Positions 4,010 to 62,510 of a DNA stretch of 64,000 nt are shown here, piece by piece. Each line of letters opens with the position of its first letter. The stretch's first letter is position 1. The stretch comes from Eledone cirrhosa. Taxonomy: Eukaryota. The translations under genes and the position numbers were made by a program. The stretch lies in the NCBI GenBank assembly GCA_964016885.1, contig OZ024747.1:61008001-61072000 (forward strand), written 5' to 3'. The notes below the pieces were generated by a model. It worked only from the letters and a program-made list of their open reading frames with translations, did not search any database and was not told the origin of the DNA.

Positions 4010-4591
4010 GGGCGCTGAATTGGTAGAGAGTTGGACAAGATGCTGTGTTGTATCGAGTTATGGCCCTTTAATGTTTTGAGTTCAAATCCCACCGAATTTA
4101 AACTTTGATTTTCATCCTTACGGGGTTGATAAAATAAAGTACCAGTAATGTACTGGTACTGGTACTGGTACTTTCCCCTCTCTCCAAATTGCTGGCCTTG
4201 TGATTATAGTAGAAATCATTATTAGATTGGCAGTATTGGTAGAGTGTCAGATGCCATGCTTTGGCGCATAGAGTAACGGCCCTTGCCATTCTGAGTTCAA
4301 ATCCCGTCGAGGTTAACTTTACCTTTCATCCTTACGGGGTCGATAAAATAAAGTACCAGTAATACACTGGGTAATTGCTGGCCTTGTGCCTAAAGTAGAA
4401 ACAATTATTAGTGGAGAGACAAATCTATGTTTGTGAGGAATCAGCTGTAGTTTGCAAGAGAAGATACAGCTGGTATCGATATGTGGTGGATTGGCAGTAG
4501 TAGTAGTAGTAACAGTAGTAGTAGTAGTAGTAGTAGTAATAGTAGTAGTAACAGTAGTAGTAGTAGTAGTAGTAGTAGTAGGTGGATTGGC

Positions 4592-4622
<31 letters not shown>

Positions 4623-5075
4623 ACAGTAGTAGTAGTAGTAATAGTAGTAGTAGTAGTAACAGTAGTAGTAGTAGTAGTAACAGTAGTAGTAGTAGTAGTA
4701 GTAACAGTAGTAGTAGTAGTAGTAGTAACAGTAGTAGTAGTAGTAGGTGGATTGGCAGTATCAGTAGAGAGTTGGATAGTATGTTGGTGGAGTTACATCC
4801 CTTTACGTTCTGAGTTCAAATCCCACCGAGGTTAACTTTGCCTTTCATCCTTACAGGGGTCGATAAAATAAAGTACCAGTCATGCACTGGGGTCAATTTT
4901 ATCGACTTTCCTCTCCCCCCCAAAATTGCTGGCCTTGTGCCTATATAAGGAACCATTATCATTATTAATCCTGTCGAGGTTAACTTTGCCTTTCGTCCTT
5001 ACGGGGGTCGGTAAAATAAAGTAGCAGTAATACACTGGGGGTAATTGCTGGCCTTGTGCCAAAGGTAGAAACAAT
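4010..5075 (+). mobile_element. Tandem cluster of ~4 SINE A copies, one with a (GTA)n-expanded head
   Basis: Copies at ~4010-4220, 4225-4408, 4482-4957 and 4968-5073. Confidence 0.85.
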
Positions 5076-5291
5076 TATTATTATTACCATCACCAGTATT
5101 CTTCTTATTACAATTATAATAACCAGCCATGTGGTTGTTGTTGCTGTTATGTTCCCCATACAGTATTATGAAATAAAGAACAGCAACAGAATATATGTGA
5201 GCAGGTGGGGGATGTGAGGGAAGAAAACTTGTCAGACTCCATAATATTTGTCTCTTCTTCAACTTGGTTATATTTATATATATATATATAA

Positions 5292-5478: not shown

Positions 5479-5553
<75 letters not shown>

Positions 5554-5554
5554 G

Positions 5555-5596
<42 letters not shown>

Positions 5597-5749
5597 TTTA
5601 TATATATATATATAAATATATATGTAGGAGGTGAGTTTTATTGTAGTACAATAAAGCAATGCAGATATCGGATAAGAAGCACTCTACAGTTTGTGGGACT
5701 GGAGTATGCATAATATAAGATCAAAAGATGGTTAAAGGAGTTCCATATA

Positions 5750-5816
5750 TTTTATTATGCGCATTTCAAAAACAAACATCATCAAGCAATAATATTTGTG
5801 TTTTCATCAGATAAAA
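5750..5816 (-). ncRNA. Type I minimal hammerhead ribozyme (left arm, inverted copy)
   Basis: Reverse complement of 8187-8253. Confidence 0.85.
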
Positions 5817-6599
5817 CAGGAGAACATGATATGAAGGCTAAAAAACACTTGTTGATAGTGCAGTTTTAAATCAACATATGAAAAGTGGTTTTAGATTGAT
5901 GTGTGATATTGGGAAAAATATTTTATTTAGAGAGGGGGGGGGGAAGGATGAAAAGGGAAGGAGATGAGAGGGAGAGATGGGTGATAGAGAGAAAGAGATA
6001 GTTTTTATAACTGAAGGAGATATATTTTTTACATAGAGGGGTTGAAAACCGTTGGAAGATACTGTATAAATTAAACATTTTGAAAATTAACGAAGGGAGG
6101 ATATGTGCGAGGAAAAAATATTTTATTTAGGGAGGGGGGGGGATGAAAAAAAAGGGGGGAGGAGATGAGAGTGAAGGTGGAGAGGGAGAGATGGGTGATA
6201 GAGAGAAAGAGATAGTTTTTATAACTGAGAAAAAGATATATTGTTTTAATATAGAGAGGTTGGGAACCGTTGGAAGATAATGTATAAATTAAAGGAATTT
6301 GAAAATTAACGAAGGGAAATTATGTATGAAGATAGAGAGAAAAAAATAATAATTGTGGGTGAATATTCTAACGTCAAAAGAAGAAATGTATGTATTGTGG
6401 CAATTTCAAAATTAGCGAAGAGAAAAGTTGTTATGGTTTGTGTGTAGAAGGATTTGAGAAAAATAATGTGAAGTTAAAGTTTGTATATTGAATTGATATG
6501 TATTAATAATGAGTTCGTTGATGGGGAGAAAAAAAAATAATAATAAATTAAGGATGAAATTGAGATTAAAAAGATTTATGATAGAGAGAAAAAATAATA

Positions 6600-7193
6600 A
6601 TGATTGCGGATGAATATTCAACGTCAAACACAACTTCGCTAAATGTTCATAATCCAACTCTAAATCAAGAAACTATTATTCCTATTATTCCTATCGCAAA
6701 CAACTTCTCCAATCCAATTCCTTCTATAGATAACACTAGATCACTCATTAATAATCTCTCTAATTGCAACTGCCGCATCAAAAATAAATGTCCTCTCAAC
6801 AACCATTGCCTCGATAAAAACTTAATTTATGAATGTAAAATTATAACTAGCACCAATTCCTTCACCTATTTTGGCTCCATTTCCACCTCTTTTAAAGCTC
6901 GTCTCTATAATCATCATTCATCTTTCAAATACAAACTTAAAAGAACTAACACTGCTCTCTCAGAACTCATATGGTCCTTAAAAGACAAAAACATTAAATA
7001 TAACATCTTTTGGAAAAAGATTTCTTCTGCATCCTCATACTTGAACAGCTCTCTATCTAAAATCTGTAATCTCTGCCTAAATGAAAAATTTACCATTATC
7101 TCTAACCTAGATTCTATAATAAACAGACGCTCAGATTTGTTTTCTATCTGCCTGCATAAATTCCATAGAACTTTTCACAAAGTATACAGTTAA
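6600..7193 (+). CDS. GIY-YIG endonuclease domain of a Penelope-like element (no RT), 197 aa open frame
   Basis: CNCRIKNKC (CxCx5C linker described for Naiad PLEs), LIY...YFG (GIY-YIG core), FKARLYNH (catalytic R), CNLCLNEK (catalytic E), IINRRSD (conserved N), terminal CLH. The ATG is supplied by the inverted arm. Confidence 0.85.
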   Translation: MIADEYSTSNTTSLNVHNPTLNQETIIPIIPIANNFSNPIPSIDNTRSLINNLSNCNCRIKNKCPLNNHCLDKNLIYECKIITSTNSFTYFGSISTSFKARLYNHHSSFKYKLKRTNTALSELIWSLKDKNIKYNIFWKKISSASSYLNSSLSKICNLCLNEKFTIISNLDSIINRRSDLFSICLHKFHRTFHKVYS

Positions 7194-8186
7194 TATTCAA
7201 TTCTTTATCAATTTAGAATCTTTTCTCAAAGGCACATATACATACACCTCTTTAAAATATACCCATCTACCTTACCTTACTTTAAAGGGCATTATACACT
7301 CTATAATACTCGTTTACTCATTACCCTCCTTCTATCTTCTCGTAAAATAATAACATTTGTTTTTGACATTTTGAATATTCATCCGCAATCATTATTATTT
7401 TTTCTCTCTATCATAAATCTTTTTAATCTCAATTTCATCCTTAATTTATTATTATTTTTTTTCTCCCCATCAACGAACTCATTATTAATACATATCAATT
7501 CAATATACAAACTTTAACTTCACATTATTTTTCTCAAATCCTTCTACACACAAACCATAACAACTTTTCTCTTCGCTAATTTTGAAATTGCCACAATACA
7601 TACATTTCTTCTTTTGACGTTAGAATATTCACCCACAATTATTATTTTTTTCTCTCTATCTTCATACATAATTTCCCTTCGTTAATTTTCAAATTCCTTT
7701 AATTTATACATTATCTTCCAACGGTTCCCAACCTCTCTATATTAAAACAATATATCTTTTTCTCAGTTATAAAAACTATCTCTTTCTCTCTATCACCCAT
7801 CTCTCCCTCTCCACCTTCACTCTCATCTCCTCCCCCCTTTTTTTCATCCTTTCCACCCCCCCCCCCTCCCTAAATAAAATATTTTTTCCTCGCACATATC
7901 CTCCCTTCGTTAATTTTCAAAATTTTTAATTTATACAGTATCTTCCAACGGTTTTCAACCCCTCTATGTAAAAAATATATCTCCTTCAGTTATAAAAACT
8001 ATCTCTTTCTCTCTATCACCCATCTCTCCCTCTCATCTCCTTCCCTTTTCATCCTTTCCCCCCCCCCCCTCTCTAAATAAAATATTTTTCCCAATATCAC
8101 ACATCAATCTAAAACCACTTTTCATATGTTGATTTAAAACTGCACTATCAACAAGTGTTTTTTAGCCTTCATATCATGTTCTCCTG

Positions 8187-8253
8187 TTTTATCTGATGAA
8201 AACACAAATATTATTGCTTGATGATGTTTGTTTTTGAAATGCGCATAATAAAA
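8187..8253 (+). ncRNA. Type I minimal hammerhead ribozyme (right arm)
   Basis: TTTTAT-CTGATGA-[stem II AAACACAAATATTATT/GATGATGTTTGTTTT]-GAAAT-GCGC-ATA-ATAAAA. Stem I TTTTAT/ATAAAA, palindromic stem III ATGCGCAT, AUA cleavage triplet. Confidence 0.85.
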
Positions 8254-8297
8254 TATATGGAACTCCTTTAACCATCTTTTGATCTTATATTATATAA

Positions 8298-8333
<36 letters not shown>

Positions 8334-8433
8334 GTATATATATATAAACGTTATATATATATATATATATATATAAACGTTAAATGAGGATGATGATGAT
8401 GATGATATATACATAGAAAGAGATTCGTTTTCA

Positions 8434-8480
<47 letters not shown>

Positions 8481-8618: not shown

Positions 8619-8812
8619 CTGTTTTACGTCCGTTCTTCCACGCTAGCATGGGTTAGACGGGTTGTCCTGTTGTGGGCAGTGTCTGGTCGGCTGACCATGC
8701 CTTGCTCATACAGGAACTGATATATATATTTATATATACACACACATATATTTATCTATTAATAAAATATGTACTACATCTCTTCTCTCTCATATATATA
8801 TATATAATATAT

Positions 8813-9177
8813 ATACAATGATATTAAATAAATGGAAACTATATTTATAAAACCATATTTATTCTATTATATATATTTCAAGGGTACCAAAACTTTGGTA
8901 CGCTCTCATCAGATAAAATACAAACTTTGTTTTATAAATGTTGACATAATCAAGAAAAGATACCTTAAGGGTTCAAGTTTTCCTTGGAAGGAAAACTTGA
9001 ACTGTTAAGGTATCTTTAAACCGTTAAGGTACCCTTGAAATATATATAATAAAATAAACATGGTTTTATAAATAATATCATTGGATATTATACTCCAGAA
9101 AACCTGTTGAGTGCTCTGAATCAGTTATAAACATTTATATTTGTTGAATTACCAACAAATTGAATATCCCTTTTGCT
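8813..9177 (-). mobile_element. Small PLE-derived fold-back with hammerhead and one-sided tail
   Basis: Arms ~8843-8888 / 9028-9074, internal hairpin 8957-9016, tail with TACTC(9091)...GAGTGC(9109), flanked by (TA)n. Confidence 0.7.
8860..8920 (-). ncRNA. Type I hammerhead ribozyme
   Basis: Minus strand TATTTTAT-CTGATGA-GAGCGTACCAAAGTTTTGGTACCCTT-GAAAT-ATAT-ATA-ATAGAATA; all three stems can pair. Confidence 0.8.
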
Positions 9178-9360
9178 TATATATAATATATATATATTTA
9201 TTATTATTATTATTACTATTATCTGAGTTCAAATCCCGCTGAGGTTAACTTTGCCTTTCATCCTTACGGGGTCGATAAAATAAAGTACCAGTAATACACT
9301 GGGCAATTGCTGGCTTTGTTCCTAACGTAGAAACAATTATTATTACTATTATATATATAT

Positions 9361-9731
9361 AATATATTAACAAATGGAAACTATATTTATAAAACCATAT
9401 TTATTTCATTATACATATTTCAAGGGCCACCAAAGCAGATTATGGTGCGCTTTCATCAGATAAAATATAATATAGATTAGTTTTATAAATAAATATTGAC
9501 ATGCCCTGAAAAAATGCAACCTTCACGGTTGGAGTCTCCTGGATAGGAGCGCACCATAATCTGCTTTGGTGGCCATTGAAATATGTATAATGAAATAAAT
9601 ATGGTTCTATAAATATAGTTTCCATTTGTTAATATATTGTATATTTACTCCAATAAATATGTTGAGTGCTTTATATCAGTTATAAAAATATTTTGCTTGT
9701 TGTATCCCAACGAATTAAATATAACCTCTAC
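9361..9731 (-). mobile_element. Small PLE-derived fold-back, relative of 8813-9177
   Basis: Arms 9361-9451 / 9548-9638, tail with TACTC(9646)...GAGTGC(9664), flanked by (TA)n. Confidence 0.75.
9402..9467 (-). ncRNA. Type I hammerhead ribozyme
   Basis: Minus strand TATTTTAT-CTGATGA-AAGCGCACCATAATCTGCTTTGGTGGCCCTT-GAAAT-ATGT-ATA-ATGAAATA. Confidence 0.75.
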
Positions 9732-9769
9732 ATATATATATATATATATACTATTATTATTATTACTAT

Positions 9770-9832
<63 letters not shown>

Positions 9833-9913
9833 TATTATTATTATTACTATCATTCAGGAGAAATCATCAGGACTAAAACATATATATATATATATACTGA
9901 GAGAGAGAATAAT

Positions 9914-9953
9914 ATAGTCTGATGAAGGATTATAATTTGAAAGCGCTCACTGT
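9914..9953 (+). ncRNA. Minimal type I hammerhead candidate
   Basis: ATAGT-CTGATGA-AGGATTATAATTT-GAAA-GCGC-TC-ACTGT. Stem I ATAGT/ACTGT, palindromic stem III AGCGCT, weak stem II. Confidence 0.6.
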
Positions 9954-10070
9954 CAAGTGAACAATACTAACCCAGCTTCAAGACCCGTAGACTGTAGCTA
10001 TTTGTGCGTTCACACTAACTATAATCCTAATCCTAACTTTAATTCTAACATTACTGTCATCTAAACAAAT

Positions 10071-10362
10071 AATTGTTTCTACTTTAGGCACAAGGCCAGC
10101 AAATACCCAGTACATTACTGGTACTTTAATTTATCGACCCCGTAAGGATGAAAAGCAAAGTCAACCTCGGCGGGATTTGAACTCAGATCGTAAAGGGCCG
10201 TAAATATGCTGGAAAGCATGGTGTCCGACCCTCTACCGATACTGCCAATCCACTAATAATAATAATAATAACTGTTTCTACTTTTTGCACAAGGCCAGCA
10301 GTTACCCCAGTACATTACTGGTGCTTTATTTACTGGGGTAATTGCTGGCCTTGTGCCAAAAG
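10071..10362 (-). mobile_element. SINE A copy plus rearranged fragments
   Basis: Reverse complement of the SINE A consensus at 10071-10252; further 3' pieces at 10272-10362; a 3' half on + at 9222-9338. Confidence 0.85.
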
Positions 10363-11226: not shown

Positions 11227-11419
11227 TACACACACATACACTCCTACACACAGAAGTAGCTAATCTAACAGTTATTGCTGAGTGGATGACCACCCAATTG
11301 CTAACACTAACAACTCTCTAACTCAACAACTTCTACATGGTTACATTTCTGCTGAAGAGAATTAATCAGACTTTGCTGTTTTTATTTGCTTGACATTTAC
11401 TACCAAGTGTCGTGGCAAA

Positions 11420-12060
11420 GTGATGAATTCTTGTTGAACCTAATTTGTAGTTCAAATGTAGAAGAAAGTGATAAATTCTTGTTGAACCTAATTTGTAGTT
11501 CAAATGTAGAGTTACGTAAAGTAATAGACTATTGTTGAACTGTTGAACCTAATTTGTAGTTCCAATGTAGAGTTACGTAAAGTAATAGACTATTGTTGAA
11601 CTGTTGAACCTAATTTGTAGTTCCAATGTAGAGTTAATAAATTTTTGTTGAATCTAATTTGTAGTTAAAATGTAGAGTTAAGTAAAGTAATAGACTATTG
11701 TTGGACCTAATTTGTAGTTCAAATGTAGAGTTAAGTAATAAATTCTTGTTGAACCTAATTTGTAGTTCAAATGTAGAACAAAGTGATAAATCTTTGTAGC
11801 TCAAATGTAGAGTTAAGTAAAGTAATAGACTATTGTTGAACCTAATTTGTAGCTCAAATGTAGAATTAAGTAATAAACTGTTGTTGAGACTAATTTGTAG
11901 TTCAAATGTAGAGTTAAGTAATAAATTCTTGTTGAACCTAATTTGTAGCTCAAATTTAGAGGTGAGTGATAAATTCTTGTTGAACCTAATTTGTAGTTCA
12001 AATGTAGAGCTAAGTTATAAATTCTTTTTGAAGCTTATTTGTAGCTCAAATGTGGAGCTT
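11420..12060. repeat. Minisatellite, ~48-bp unit
   Basis: TTGTTGAACCTAATTTGTAGTTCAAATGTAGAGTTAAGTAATAAATTC repeated about 13 times. Confidence 0.9.
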
Positions 12061-18779: not shown

Positions 18780-19865
18780 TTAATCTAGAAATTGAACCTT
18801 ACAAACATAAGTCACTTAATCTAGAAATTGAACCTTACAAACATAAGTCACTTAATCTAGAAATTGAACCTATAACCTTACAATCATAAGTCACTTGATC
18901 TAGAAATTGAACCTTACAATCACGAGTTACTTGATGTAGAAATTAAACCCATAACTTTACAACTATGAGTCACTTGATCTAGAAATTGAACCTAAAACCT
19001 TACAATCACGAGTCAACTTGATCTAGAAATTAAACCTATTACCTTACAGTCATGAGTCACTTGATCTAGAAATTGAACCTAAAACCTTACAATCACGAGT
19101 CAACTTGATCTAGAAATTAAACCTATTACCTTACAGTCATGAGTCACTTGATCTAGAAATTGAACCTATAACCTTACAATCATAAGTCACTTGATCTAGA
19201 AATTGAACCTTACAATCACGAGTTACTTGATGTAGAAATTAAACCCATAACTTTACAACTATGAGTCACTTGATCTAGAAATTGAACCTAAAACCTTACA
19301 ATCACGAGTCAACTTGATCTAGAAATTAAACCTATTACCTTACAGTCATGAGTCACTTGATCTAGAAATTGAACCTAAAACCTTACAATCACGAGTCAAC
19401 TTGATCTAGAAATTAAACCTATTACCTTACAGTCATGAGTCACTTGATCTAGAAATTGAACCTATAACCTTACAATCATAAGTCACTTGATCTAGAAATT
19501 GAACCTAAAACCTTACAATCACGAGTCAACTTGATCTAAAAATTAAACCTATTACCTTACAGTCATGAGTCACTTGATCTAGAAATTGAACCTATAACCT
19601 TACAATCACGAGTCAACTTGATCTAGAAATTAAACCTATTACCTTACAGTCATGAGTCACTTGATCTAGAAATTGAACCTATAACCTTACAATCATAAGT
19701 CACTTGATCTAGAAATTGAACCTTACAATCATGGGTCACTTGATCTAGAAATTGAACCTATAAACTTACAATCATGGGTCACTTGATCTACAAATTGAAC
19801 CTATAAACTTACAATCATGGGTCACTTGATCTAGAAATTGAACCTATAAACTTACAATCATGAGT
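18780..19865. repeat. Minisatellite, ~43-bp unit (~25 copies) expanded from a SINE head
   Basis: GAGTCACTTGATCTAGAAATTGAACCTATAACCTTACAATCAT, flanked by the remaining minus-strand SINE parts. Confidence 0.9.
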
Positions 19866-29024: not shown

Positions 29025-29539
29025 TATAACAACTCAACTTGCTAAAAAGGGCAGCCTAATACCCTTTCCTCCTCCTACTTGTTGTCCAGACACTTATAAA
29101 GCTCATTCTCTCTTACGCATATATACACCAGGTCCAAACACAAAAGAACCAAACACCCAGTCTCTTGCTCTCCCCATCTCTCCTGCTCCCTCTGCTCTCC
29201 CCATCTCTCTGTCATTGGTTATAAACTATTATTTCATTATATTAAATTGTAAAATTAACAAAATTGAAAACCCTAACTAAAAAGTTCATAAAGTAGAATT
29301 TGTGTTTTATACCAAAATATATCTGTAGCTGATATTGATAGAATAAATTTACAAGACACACAGTTACACACACACACATATATATTCATCATCATTTAAT
29401 GTTCATTATCCATGCTAGCATGGGTTAGACGGGTTGTCCCATTAGAGGCAAGTGAGGTCAGGTGACTGTGTCTTGCTAATATAGAACTGTTTCTGGCTAG
29501 GTTTTGTATGGCTGGATACCCTTCTAAGACCAACCACAT

Positions 29540-30150
29540 TTACAGTGTGCTGGGTGTCTTTTGTCATGATACCTACACAACAAATTTACAGTGTGGGCAG
29601 GGTGCTTTTTGTTGTGACACCTACACGACTACTTTACAGTGTGGGCAGGGTGCTTTTTGTTGTGACACCTACACGACTACTTTACAGTGTGGGCAGGGTG
29701 CTTTTTGTTGTGACACCTACACGACTAGTTTACAGTGTGGGCAGGGTGCTTTTTGTTGTGACACCTACACGACTACTTTACAGTGTGGGCAGGGTGCTTT
29801 TTGCTGTGACACCTACACGACTACTTTACAGTGTGGGCAGGGTGCTTTTTGTTGTGACACCTACACGACTACTTTACAGTGTGGGCAGGGTGCTTTTTGT
29901 TGTGACACCTACAAGACTACTTTACAGTGTGGTCGTGACACCTACACGACTACTTTACAGTGTGGGCTGGGTGCTTTTTGTCGTGACACCTACACGACTA
30001 CTTTACAGTGTGGGCTGGGTGCTTTTTGTCGTGACACCTACATGACTACTTTACAGTGTGGGCTGGTTGATTTTTATTGTGACACCCACATGATCCCTTT
30101 ACAGTGGGGGCTGGATGCATTTTGTTGTGATACCAACATAACTTTACAGT
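29540..30150. repeat. 48-bp minisatellite expanded inside the RTE-tailed element
   Basis: ACTTTACAGTGTGGGCAGGGTGCTTTTTGTTGTGACACCTACACGACT about 12 times. Confidence 0.9.
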
Positions 30151-30628
30151 GTAAGGGTGGTGTGTACAGGAGTGGGTGCATGGGGTATAGTGTTTAAGAG
30201 GTCCTTACAAGATGTATGTTTGACTCGGTGCAAATGGGAAGGTGTGTCTTCTGTATAACTGCATAACACCAAAGATCTTGACCCTGTATCATTGCCTATG
30301 AGAGGTGCAATTGCACAAGGTCAATTTATATATATATGAACATCCACTAGTTTCAATGATAAGAGCTCCAGTTGTTTGATCAACAAAACTTCCTGTTCAT
30401 TCAATTAATATGTAAGTGGCTGAGCATTCCACAGTCACATGTACAGTGACAGGGAGGCTTAGGTACACAGGCACATGTAGATAGACACACATGTACATAG
30501 ACATGCACAAATATACACAGGCATACTCATAGACTTACATATATATATACATACATACACATATATATATATACACAGATAAACACAGACACACACAGAC
30601 ATACATACATACACACTTACACAGACAT

Positions 30629-43590: not shown

Positions 43591-44157
43591 ACTGCATTAT
43601 TACATACAGTAAAGATATAACAGAACTGTGAAGGTTGTGAGCTGTACATAGCTGCAGTATTACATACAGTAAAGATATAACAGAACTGTGAAGGTTGTGA
43701 GCTATACATAGCTGCAGTATTACATACAGTAAAGATATAACAGAACTGTGAAGGATGTGAGCTATACATAGCTGCAGTATTACATACAGTAAAGATATAA
43801 CAGAACTGTGAAGGTTGTGAGCTATACATAGCTGCAGTATTACATACAGTAAAGATATAACAGAACTGTGAAGGTTGTGAGCTATACATAGCTGCAGTAT
43901 TACATACAGTAAAGATATAACAGAACTGTGAAGGTTGTGAGCTATACATAGCTGCAGTATTACATACAGTAAAGATATAACAGAACTGTGAAGGTTGTGA
44001 GCTATACATAGCTGCAGTATTACATACAGTAAAGATATAACAGAACTGTGAAGGTTGTGAGCTATACATAGCTGCAGTATTACATACAGTAAAGATATAA
44101 CAGAACTGTGAAGGATGTGAGCTGTACATAGCTGCAGTATTACATACAGTAAAGATT
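43591..44157. repeat. Near-perfect 60-bp minisatellite, ~9.4 copies
   Basis: Successive 60-nt lines are almost identical: CAGAACTGTGAAGGTTGTGAGCTATACATAGCTGCAGTATTACATACAGTAAAGATATAA. Confidence 0.95.
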
Positions 44158-44765
44158 TAACTACTGACTGGATGAATATAAAATAAGGTAACTTGCTGAG
44201 GATACAATGCCCTGTCCTGTCAAGTCAGGGGACTGAAGAATACATTATCTTACAATTGTAAACTTAACACCATAAGCATTAGGCCATGCTCTTTCATCTT
44301 TATAACATGAAACCCAAACAAATTATTACATCTACCCAAGGTGTTCAATAATAGAGTGAAAACATGTAATAAAAATAAGACTATTTAAAAATAACAATAA
44401 ATATTGGTTATTACAAGGGAGAGAAAAAGAAAAGGTTTGATGTAAAAGCGAATGGAAGATTGGTAAAATTGATTCTTTAATGTTTTGAATAAGTTGTTTG
44501 AAGTGCTCGTCAAGTAGATTTAATTATTTTCATAAGAAATTCCTTTGTACAGAGTCTTCAACTATCCTCTATCTAATTATCTAGTTTAGATTCTTCAAAG
44601 ATGGGATGGACGAAGACATAACTACTACTTACATATACACATATATGTCTATGTCTGCTACACTCTCAGTTTCTCTGTCTGTATGTATGTGTGTGTGTGT
44701 GTTTACATATGCATGTGTGTATATGCCTGTATATATATATTCATACACACACACAGACACATATA

Positions 44766-57227: not shown

Positions 57228-57715
57228 ACATGGCTCAGTGGTTAGAGCATTGGCCTTGCAATCGAAAGGTTGTGAGTTCAATTCTCAGACAGGGTGATGT
57301 GTTGTTTCCTTGAGCAAGACACTTTATTTCACATTGCTCCAGTTTACTCAGCTGTAGAAATGAAATGATAGGGACTGAGGTCCCTATCATTCCACTGCAA
57401 AGTGGCAAAAAAGCCACGGCAGAAAAAAGCACCCAGCCCACACTGTAAAGTGGACATGTAGGTGCCACAGAAAGAAAAAAGCACCCAGCCCACACCGTAA
57501 AGTGGACATGTAGGTGCCACGGAAAAAAAAAGCACCCAGCCCACACTGTAAAGTGGACGTGTAGGTGCCACGGAAAGAAAAAAGCACCCAGCCCACACTG
57601 TAAATGAGGTTGGTGTTAGGAAGGGGATCCAGCTGTAGAAATCAAGCCAGAATGAGTTCCCGTCCCACCCTTGCAAAGCAGGAAAAAGCGGACGTAAAAT
57701 GATGATGATGATGAT
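57228..57715 (+). mobile_element. SINE B: tRNA head, CORE-like domain and RTE-derived 3' tail
   Basis: TGGCTCAGTGGTTAGAGC...GAGTTCAATTC, TTCCTTGAGCAAGACACTTT; the end CCGTCCCACCCTTGCAAAGCAGG..GGACGTAAAATGATGATG matches the RTE end at 36548-36603. Confidence 0.8.
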
Positions 57716-60220: not shown

Positions 60221-61899
60221 AATCGAATTATGCTAACACACAAAAACACAAGTGTTTTAAATAATTTTCAATGTAAAGCAGCCTTTCAGGTCGTATGATT
60301 GGCTTCATGGAGTCGTTTTTGAAGCAATGTTTTACAGTTAGATGTCTATCTTGGTGCCAGCATTTTATGACATTCAGTGATATGGTATACTGGAAGCATA
60401 CAACAACACTTGATGTCTTTTTGAAACTGACTTGTTTCATGGGTTACTCATGCTTCAATTTTATTCACCAATAGTTGTAACCATCTCTGTGAAATATGGA
60501 TTATGACCTAAAAGATTCAATGTGATACTGACAGCTCTTAAGACTTCAGGCACAATAAAGTATTGGCTGTTTACCTTTGCATATGAAGTTGCTTCCAAGT
60601 ATTGCAACCTCCTCCCCCACCCTGTTACCAGACAATCTTTTAATTATTTCTGTGTATATTTGCCTACAATTACGCCATAACTATGTTTTAAGTCAAATGG
60701 TCTTACACAGCTGCCATAAGGAGTTTATATGTAGTATATATTTGGTTTAGAATAGGCATATCATACCCCTTCTTGTCGTAGGAGGAGAATAAAACTGTTA
60801 ACACCAGGAAGAATATCTTGCCATTAAACATTGCCTTTAAAACAATGATGGTGAGTATGAAACCTATCATGGGTCTACAATCAGAGTTGGATTTAGACCT
60901 TGGGGGGCCGGGGCACTTCAGGTGTCACTGGCCATTCTTTGTGGCAATACCTTTGTCATTTTATCTATGGGGTGCAGCTGAAACACCACTCAGACTTGGG
61001 TTTAGTCTGTTGCTCGCTCTCCCTTCCTTTCTTTCAATGCTTGATTCTCCTTTTTCTGAGTCATTTTTCCTTTTTTTGTTTCCTTATTGCCATGTATATT
61101 GTACAGTTGTTTTACTGTTAGTACATTTATTGGTGACTGTTTGGGAATCTTAGGTATTATAAACATTATTCCTTAAAAGCAGTGCCTCAGCATGGCCACA
61201 GAAACCAAAATGAAAGAATCGTTAAACTTTGAATGACTTAGTTTGGCAATCAATTAAGTAGTCATTTATATAACTTACTCAAAAAACTAATGCAAATATA
61301 TAAATTTGTCGAATTATTAAATCTCTAAATGTACTGGAGAATCAATATAGAGTTATTTTAAAACAAAATTGTATTTATTGATCTCAAAATATGTTCATAT
61401 TTAAGTGAAAACTTTAGAAAATTATTGAACAATCCTTAAAGATTAATTTTAAATTCTCTGGCTAATTGAAGTTTTAATAAATTTCTGATCATTTTCCTTT
61501 TCTTTTGAAAATTAATTAATTATCAATTTGTGATTGTACAGTTTGGTGAAGAAAATTATACACCATTAAAATATGACAATAGTGAATAGAAAATTGCTTT
61601 ACCCTGTGTTATAATGTTATTGAACAATGATAACAACTAAACAGTTATACTAATTAAACAATGATCCTGACTGAGCATTCATCTCAACAGTTTTCATACA
61701 AAACTACCAAAACTTTCTCTGGTTCTGTGATACAAAACTGCCCCTTTTAGAGTGTTCATACTTATATTAAAATATTCCATCTTCATCATCATCATTTAAC
61801 ATCAAATTTGCATGATTGCATGGGTTAGAAGGATTGTCATGTGAGACGAGTTAGGCCAGGTGACTGTGTTTTACTCATAAAGACCTGTATCTGGCTTGG

Positions 61900-62510
61900 T
61901 TTCTACAGCCGGATGTTCTGCTCACAAGGAACTGTTTCTCGTTTGCTTTTTACAGTTACATGCCCTGCTCACAAGGAACTGTTTCTCGTTTGGTTTTTAC
62001 AGTTACATGCCCTGCTCATAAGGAACTGTTTATTGTTTGATTTTTACAGTTAGATGCCCTGCTCATAAGGAACTGTTTATTGTTTGGTTTTTACAGTTAG
62101 ATGCCCTGCTCATAAGGAACTGTTTATTGTTTGATTTTTACAGTTAGATGCCCTGCTCATAAGGAACTGTTTATCGTTTGCTTTTTACAGTTACATGCCC
62201 TGCTCATAAGGAACTGTTTCTCGTTTGGTTTTAACAGTTAAATGCCCTGCTCATAAGGAACTGTTTCTCGTTTGGTTTTAACAGTTAAATGCCCTGCTCA
62301 TAAGGAACTGTTTCTCGTTTGGTTTTTACAGTTATATTTCCTACTCATGAGGAACTGTTTCTTGTTTTGTTTTTTATAGTTAGATGCCCTGCTCATGAGG
62401 AACTGTTTCTCGTTTGGTTTCTTCTGCTCATAAGGAACTATTTCTGGTTTAGTTTCTACTGCTGGATTCCCTGCTAGTAAGGAGCTGTTTCTGGCTTGGT
62501 TTCTACAGGT
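61900..62510. repeat. 47-bp minisatellite derived from the RTE-tailed element
   Basis: ATGCCCTGCTCATAAGGAACTGTTTCTCGTTTGGTTTTTACAGTTAG repeats. Confidence 0.9.

Follow-up and report, generated by a model that had tools for sequence, protein, structure and literature searches.

Origin of a nuclease-bearing palindrome in Eledone cirrhosa: a truncated head-to-head insertion of a young Penelope-like family with Hydra-clade motifs

Within a 64,000-nucleotide stretch of the Eledone cirrhosa genome (contig OZ024747.1, 61,008,001–61,072,000; hereafter the window), an open GIY-YIG nuclease frame without a reverse transcriptase (RT) lies between two inverted arms, each of which carries a hammerhead motif. 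The question raised by this arrangement was whether the locus is a unit with a function or mobility of its own, or a piece of a larger retroelement, and how its inverted arm was formed. Our analysis identified it as a truncated head-to-head insertion, in itself unremarkable, of a young and abundant Penelope-like element (PLE) family with Hydra-clade motifs. It probably arose from a double nick, double priming and end joining. The interest lies less in the locus than in a rule for insertion ends that most two-armed insertions of the family follow.

The palindrome and its surroundings

Alignment of the left arm (5710–6621) with the inverted right arm (7371–8293) showed two substitutions and four small indels, which corresponds to 98% identity over 938 columns with gaps counted and bears out the near-identity first described. 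The 86-nt tail confined to the left arm and the (TA)n tracts on both sides were likewise recovered (Table 1). In tandem copies of the family, the pLTR end (site P, window position 8293) is followed by the tail, by site T (window position 5624) and then by the ORF. Full-length copies also have a tail that continues into the ORF.

Table 1. Features of the palindrome in window coordinates
Feature	Position (bp)	Strand	Remarks
Left (TA)n flank, target microsatellite	5484–5623		Nearly every family end adjoins (TA)n
86-nt tail, the unit's leader between site P (pLTR end) and site T	5624–5709	−	Outer end is the T end
Left arm, inverted 3′ UTR copy running on into the tail; T-ended, about 1.0 kb	5710–6621	−	
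Minimal type I hammerhead motif; predicted cut between 5756 and 5755	5750–5816	−	Descriptor scan; mirror of 8187–8253
Mirror of arm-end hot spot (likely RNA 5′ end)	5876–5884	−	Mirror of 8119–8127
Chimeric 197-aa frame: about 6 antisense-arm codons, then parent residues ~607–800 (linker, nuclease)	6600–7193	+	
Head-to-head junction, 3-nt microhomology, genome-unique	6619–6621		
Right arm: 5′-truncated element (linker, nuclease, 3′ UTR), tail-less, ending at site P	6619–8293	+	
CxCx5C linker motif (6765–6791) and GIY-YIG nuclease domain with CxxC and CxH, without CCHH	6765–7190	+	
3′ UTR/pLTR, 1.1 kb, with internal ~165-nt and ~50-nt repeats	7194–8293	+	
Internal arm-end hot spot of the family, some 170 nt short of P; probable RNA 5′ end	8119–8127	+	
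Minimal type I hammerhead motif, palindromic stem III; predicted cut after 8247	8187–8253	+	Descriptor scan
Right (TA)n flank	8294–8477		(TA)n run mapped at 8286–8477

An outward-facing type I hammerhead had been predicted in each arm, and as motifs both were retrieved by a descriptor scan that gave no match in 200 block shuffles of the window. Folded in type I topology, all 24 of 24 pairs were Watson-Crick or G-U. A C-U mismatch follows the first three pairs of stem II; a stricter descriptor missed both motifs because of it, and a looser version was used. An Rfam search gave no hammerhead match at either motif, and the minimum free energy fold was unremarkable (z −0.9). Sister families in the fetched loci kept stem I and the core, had a wholly different stem II and carried A-T in place of G-C in stem III, variation that supports the predicted fold. 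A further motif of minimal hammerhead type, which belongs to an unrelated family of sequences, was found at 9913–9954 (+), directly after a (TA)n run. Additionally, a 43-nt minimal hammerhead (for example L223:4157–4199) was present in 31 identical copies across the fetched loci and is possibly a retrozyme-like repeat.

Two head-to-head mini-insertions of sister families, each of about 400 bp, lay near the locus (8808–9175 and 9345–9735). They had AT-rich flanks, hammerhead motifs at 8862–8918 (−) and 9404–9465 (−) respectively, and a tail-like extension on a single side. The window also contained dispersed repeats with a tRNA-like B box (4065–5086, 9221–9348, 10060–10201 and 57231–57288), one of them with a weak tRNA match, which are likely to be a SINE family. 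Minisatellite arrays with units of 43–60 nt were located at 11417–12053, 18831–19865, 29539–30152, 43592–44161 and 61874–62420.

The parent family and the nuclease frame

A search of the 3.0 Gb host genome returned 61,081 candidates, of which 150 were scored; all 150 scored matches were 98–100% identical. An intact 821-aa stop-to-stop frame, counted by eye, was present in 23 of the 150 and encodes an 800-aa protein of RT and nuclease, the nuclease being its last 140 aa. The 23 nucleases were about 99% identical, and the frame was confirmed in all 20 of the full-frame loci that were fetched. A model of the parent RT had its best structural matches among telomerase RTs (Z 16.9). By the union of RT and GIY-YIG nuclease in a single parent ORF, and by its pLTR partial tandems, inverted 5′-truncated copies and optional tail, the family belongs to the EN+ PLEs. 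The right arm of the window was 99.5% identical to a full-length copy (L050) over 1,672 nt, in keeping with the young 5′-truncated insertion with an inverted partner that had been proposed.

Five nuclease-bearing copies were found in tandem on contig C6 (38,073,260–38,088,333; L010–L013) at a spacing of about 3,657 bp, each with a 312-aa frame, and an inverted copy adjoins this array. Between RT and nuclease, parent residues ~606–677 form a linker of about 70 aa rich in Asn, Ser, Thr and Pro that is absent from 12 homologues; it recalls the Asn-rich inserts of Adineta Penelope elements (PMC3846280). Two runs coded as other organisms (X5 and X7) contained sequence near-identical to window 6400–7370, whose loose ends at 6619 agree with the parent ORF; the family is therefore present in more than this genome.

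The open frame of the locus extends from stop to stop between 6585 bp and 7193 bp (202 aa), or 197 aa when counted from the ATG at 6600. Pfam searches gave no match for the window ORF and nothing meaningful for the parent protein and its homologues, and a sequence search against solved structures had no match. An AlphaFold model of 6750–7190 (pLDDT 82) matched I-TevI (Z 9.1, rmsd 2.4, 89 aligned), T4 EndoII (Z 7.7) and UvrC (Z 6.1). Foldseek ranked a GIY-YIG-type family first for the same model at a weak E of 0.075, and a language-model search with the nuclease gave unnamed clusters and one cluster with 11% GIY-YIG. The open GIY-YIG ORF with CxCx5C that had been read from the sequence is confirmed.

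The in-frame ATG had been attributed to a palindrome at the junction. The ATG is present, but it lies in the inverted arm, 19 nt before the junction, and the ATG that overlaps TGAATATTCA is at 6610 and out of frame. As the parent protein has no Met past residue 325, a truncated nuclease frame needs a junction-derived Met; one had been gained in 16 of 49 comparable truncated arms of sample 1 (described below), one of these beside an N gap. The ATG at 6600 was supplied by the inverted arm by chance. It is preceded by 27 upstream ATGs and would sit inside the inverted-arm duplex of about 0.9 kb. At position 6880, beside the YFG motif, the locus has a private Thr-to-Ile change from which all 9 of 9 reference copies differ, in a column occupied by Ser, Thr or Ala in most homologues. 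Two runs recorded as RNA contained 6% of the words, and one of them (X18) gave one 168-nt contig, too little for or against expression. Nothing in the sequence suggests selection on this frame, which is probably a dead by-product, open because the copy is young.

These observations bear on the readings that would give the locus a standing of its own. Its 197-aa frame with an ATG, the predicted GIY-YIG fold and the intact hammerhead cores are what would be expected if a stand-alone nuclease with its own function were expressed from a self-cleaving fold-back RNA. Yet an open frame is expected anyway at 99.5% identity to the parent, and the frequency of Met gain, the upstream ATGs, the position of the start codon in the duplex and the private Ile all weigh against it; the likely start sites, as placed from the arm-end hot spot, also face outward from the ORF in both arms. 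Expression of this kind appears very unlikely. Terminal inverted repeats around a nuclease ORF had also suggested a self-replicating, nuclease-only mobile element, but RT-bearing parents are common and the junction occurs once in 3.0 Gb, whether searched as an exact 36-mer or as a 24-mer tolerating a single mismatch. Each of the other palindromes examined has its own junction. In this assembly the reading is refuted. A unique junction together with full-length RT-nuclease parents across the genome was the outcome by which the original prediction itself would have regarded the locus as an ordinary truncated PLE, and its special status was given up. That the palindrome is an assembly artefact is highly improbable: no listed contig of four other runs crosses the junction (these being short-read contigs from other samples), but the arms differ by substitutions and indels, are asymmetric like those of more than 120 other loci, and are joined at microhomology.

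Ends, junctions and a proposed integration route

Craig et al. (PMC8557442) count the formation of inverted structures and tails in PLEs among the unanswered questions. The family has both intact full-length elements and young insertions by the thousand, in which a rule of one P end and one T end can be counted. Sample 1 consisted of the window and 100 stretches from the scored list (20 picked for their full frame and 80 others in the order of the list), leaving aside small contigs, a tandem array and the remaining list; as it was picked by nuclease similarity, its arm lengths are biased. Sample 2 consisted of all listed exact ends on contig C1 between 20.5 and 57.4 Mb (75 stretches), from which a script paired 55 insertions. 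Sample 1 yielded 83 head-to-head insertions and 22 single-armed entries, two of which run off the fetched stretch. Among the 83, 74 had one P and one T end (70 under the narrower tolerance first applied), one had two P ends, one had two T ends and seven were unclassifiable. The ends in sample 2 were P+T in 48 of 55 insertions, against an expected 50% (p = 6e-9), T+T in four and P+P in three; about six further insertions, outside the 55, looked P+T by eye. Expressed as one-tailed pairing among classifiable insertions, the rule held in 74/76 and 48/55, with 2/76 and 7/55 exceptions. A one-ended tail has already been described in words (PMC8557442, Fig. 2 legend; PMC3846280). The literature searched, mostly outside subscription papers and older Penelope reviews, yielded no end-pairing count and no two-cDNA model.

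Published proposals derive the inverted arm from fold-back or self-priming and the one-sided tail from nuclease trimming of an intermediate (PMC3846280, PMC8557442). The arms of one insertion are indeed nearly identical, and a few junctions are centred on palindromes (L041, L057 and the hot spot). However, a copy cannot hold sequence that is missing from the longer arm, and the tail was in the shorter arm in 47 of the 74 P+T insertions, the tail-less arm being longer by more than 10 nt. This includes the locus, in which the left arm is tailed and the right arm carries the nuclease. Arms equal within 10 nt were found in just two of the 74, and arms halt at the hot spot irrespective of the partner arm. 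Neither arm was therefore copied from the other, which excludes simple fold-back, and we consider fold-back with trimming unlikely.

Arms of one insertion shared a subfamily marker in 95 of 99 cases, against 36% expected, and on this evidence both arms of an insertion come from one source. Arm concordance was considered as a test of one RNA against two and rejected, as same-type pairs were as concordant as P+T pairs; it fits one RNA, two RNAs of one master, or later gene conversion alike.

Analysis of the 83 junctions of sample 1 revealed 48 with 1–6 nt of microhomology, 7 that were blunt and 28 with extra bases, often short local repeats. Mean microhomology was 2.1 nt, compared with 0.82 nt in simulation (55 junctions without extra bases). 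Junctions of this kind resemble those of polymerase-theta end joining. In sample 2, 39 of 110 arms, both P and T, ended within the nine bases at window 8119–8127, and 15 of 55 insertions were 380–470 nt long. This hot spot, at about 8123, is likely to be the RNA 5′ end. The predicted hammerhead cut site was rejected as the hot spot, since it coincided with 1 of the 166 arm ends of sample 1, none of the 110 of sample 2 and one further case. Abundant on C1 between 20.5 and 57.4 Mb were palindromes of about 430 bp (for example L208, L241 and L244) in which one P arm and one T arm each stop at the hot spot. Exact patterns of ends against (TA)n were counted 8,336 times for T and 5,133 times for P across the genome, and tail-to-ORF junctions 254 times; the short palindromes help to account for the excess of T ends over tail-to-ORF junctions. 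Tailed arms stopped just past P in 9 of 37 cases in sample 1, within limits set after the data were seen, and in 8 of 23 in sample 2 (p = 0.01). Tail-less arms that short are undetectable, so these counts have no matched control. This stalling favours one RNA over two.

At the locus, the full-length RT-nuclease protein probably nicked the two strands of a (TA)n tract, and each nick probably primed its own cDNA on element RNA. One cDNA would have started at site P (8293) and extended 1.67 kb, and the other at site T (5624), 86 nt further down the RNA, and extended 1.0 kb. Their 3′ ends were then probably joined by microhomology at 6619–6621, presumably by a host end-joining pathway. A Poseidon protein, predicted to be a dimer, is reported by Frangieh et al. 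(2024; PMC11167929) to cut and extend both target strands in vitro, initiating at two positions of the RNA on either side of the tail. Taken with the end counts, the simplest account is a pair of target-primed cDNAs that begin at P and T respectively and are joined at their 3′ ends. In that system the two strands were not seen to differ in their start site (PMC11167929), which is compatible with the rule and does not show it.

We extend this to PLEs in general tentatively, as a reading somewhat short of an even chance: both target strands may prime synthesis from a single RNA, each from a different end of the tail, with the tail-primed RT displacing the other cDNA and the products being end-joined head to head. 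If true, double priming would account for the inverted pLTR, for the tail on one side, for stalling past P and for the mini-palindromes of about 430 bp that run off the RNA 5′ end, and no natural record of the process to date would be larger than this family. The countable end rule, the fixed hot spots and the microhomology junctions make for sharp predictions in the in vitro system already available. With near-perfect palindromes in their thousands, the family could also supply much dsRNA for host editing or silencing.

Clade assignment and known systems

The insertion had been called Naiad-type. Naiads share with the family a (TA)n target, inverted 5′-truncated partners, tails and very high copy number, whereas their nuclease is N-terminal, carries CCHH and occurs without canonical hammerheads (PMC8557442). 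The family has the reverse: a nuclease at the parent C terminus, no CCHH, and a hammerhead motif, which is the Hydra pattern. Hydra elements are defined in the consulted parts of Craig et al. (2021; PMC8557442) by DKT, CxCx5C, no CCHH, CxxC and CxH, a hammerhead and (TA)n. In the family, DKG is replaced by DKT, the three Cys of CxCx5C are invariant in 14 sequences, and CxxC and CxH surround the E and N of the nuclease; a motif of the canonical hammerhead type lies near the 3′ end and (TA)n is the apparent target. By these motifs the family falls in the Hydra clade, and it was not found listed in those parts of that paper.

Hydra-clade elements, among them Penelope-13_HM and Hydra-1_Obim, resemble the family in their single ORF of RT and C-terminal nuclease and in all of these motifs (PMC8557442). 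The layout of the locus is that of Penelope-13_HM, for which the supplement records hammerheads on both strands together with a 966-nt inverted copy that is 5′-truncated. The family unit is 3.67–3.9 kb with a long 3′ UTR, whereas Hydra elements are generally under 3 kb, and its tail is 86 nt compared to the 30–40 nt quoted for PLEs (PMC8557442). It also differs in the N-terminal motif, RWT in place of RWK (RWK occupies the same column in 9 of 12 aligned homologues), in the added ~70-aa linker and in its more than 8,000 exact ends. Its hammerhead sequence is unlike that of Hydra-1_Obim of octopus, so the two are different families.

In LINE-1 twin priming, two target strands prime reverse transcription and the cDNAs are joined by microhomology, giving an inversion, as proposed here. 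The two LINE-1 pieces span different parts of the RNA, whereas those of the family span one 3′ region from two fixed starts. Terminon stand-alone GIY-YIG ORFs are PLE-type nucleases without a fused RT, as at the locus, but they keep CX2-5CxxC and CCHH and are stable genes, whereas the locus is a one-off truncation (PMC8557442). Poseidon PAc of Anolis carolinensis is of another clade and has start sites 111–118 nt inside the ORF, compared to 80–166 nt before the ATG in the family (PMC11167929); the accessible text of that study contains no per-insertion end-pairing count and no account of inverted copies. Poseidon PAc and the family are alike in two fixed ends that flank the tail, an AT-rich target and a pLTR hammerhead, and in neither is there a sign that cleaved RNA is the main template (here 1/166 and 0/110 arm ends at the cut).
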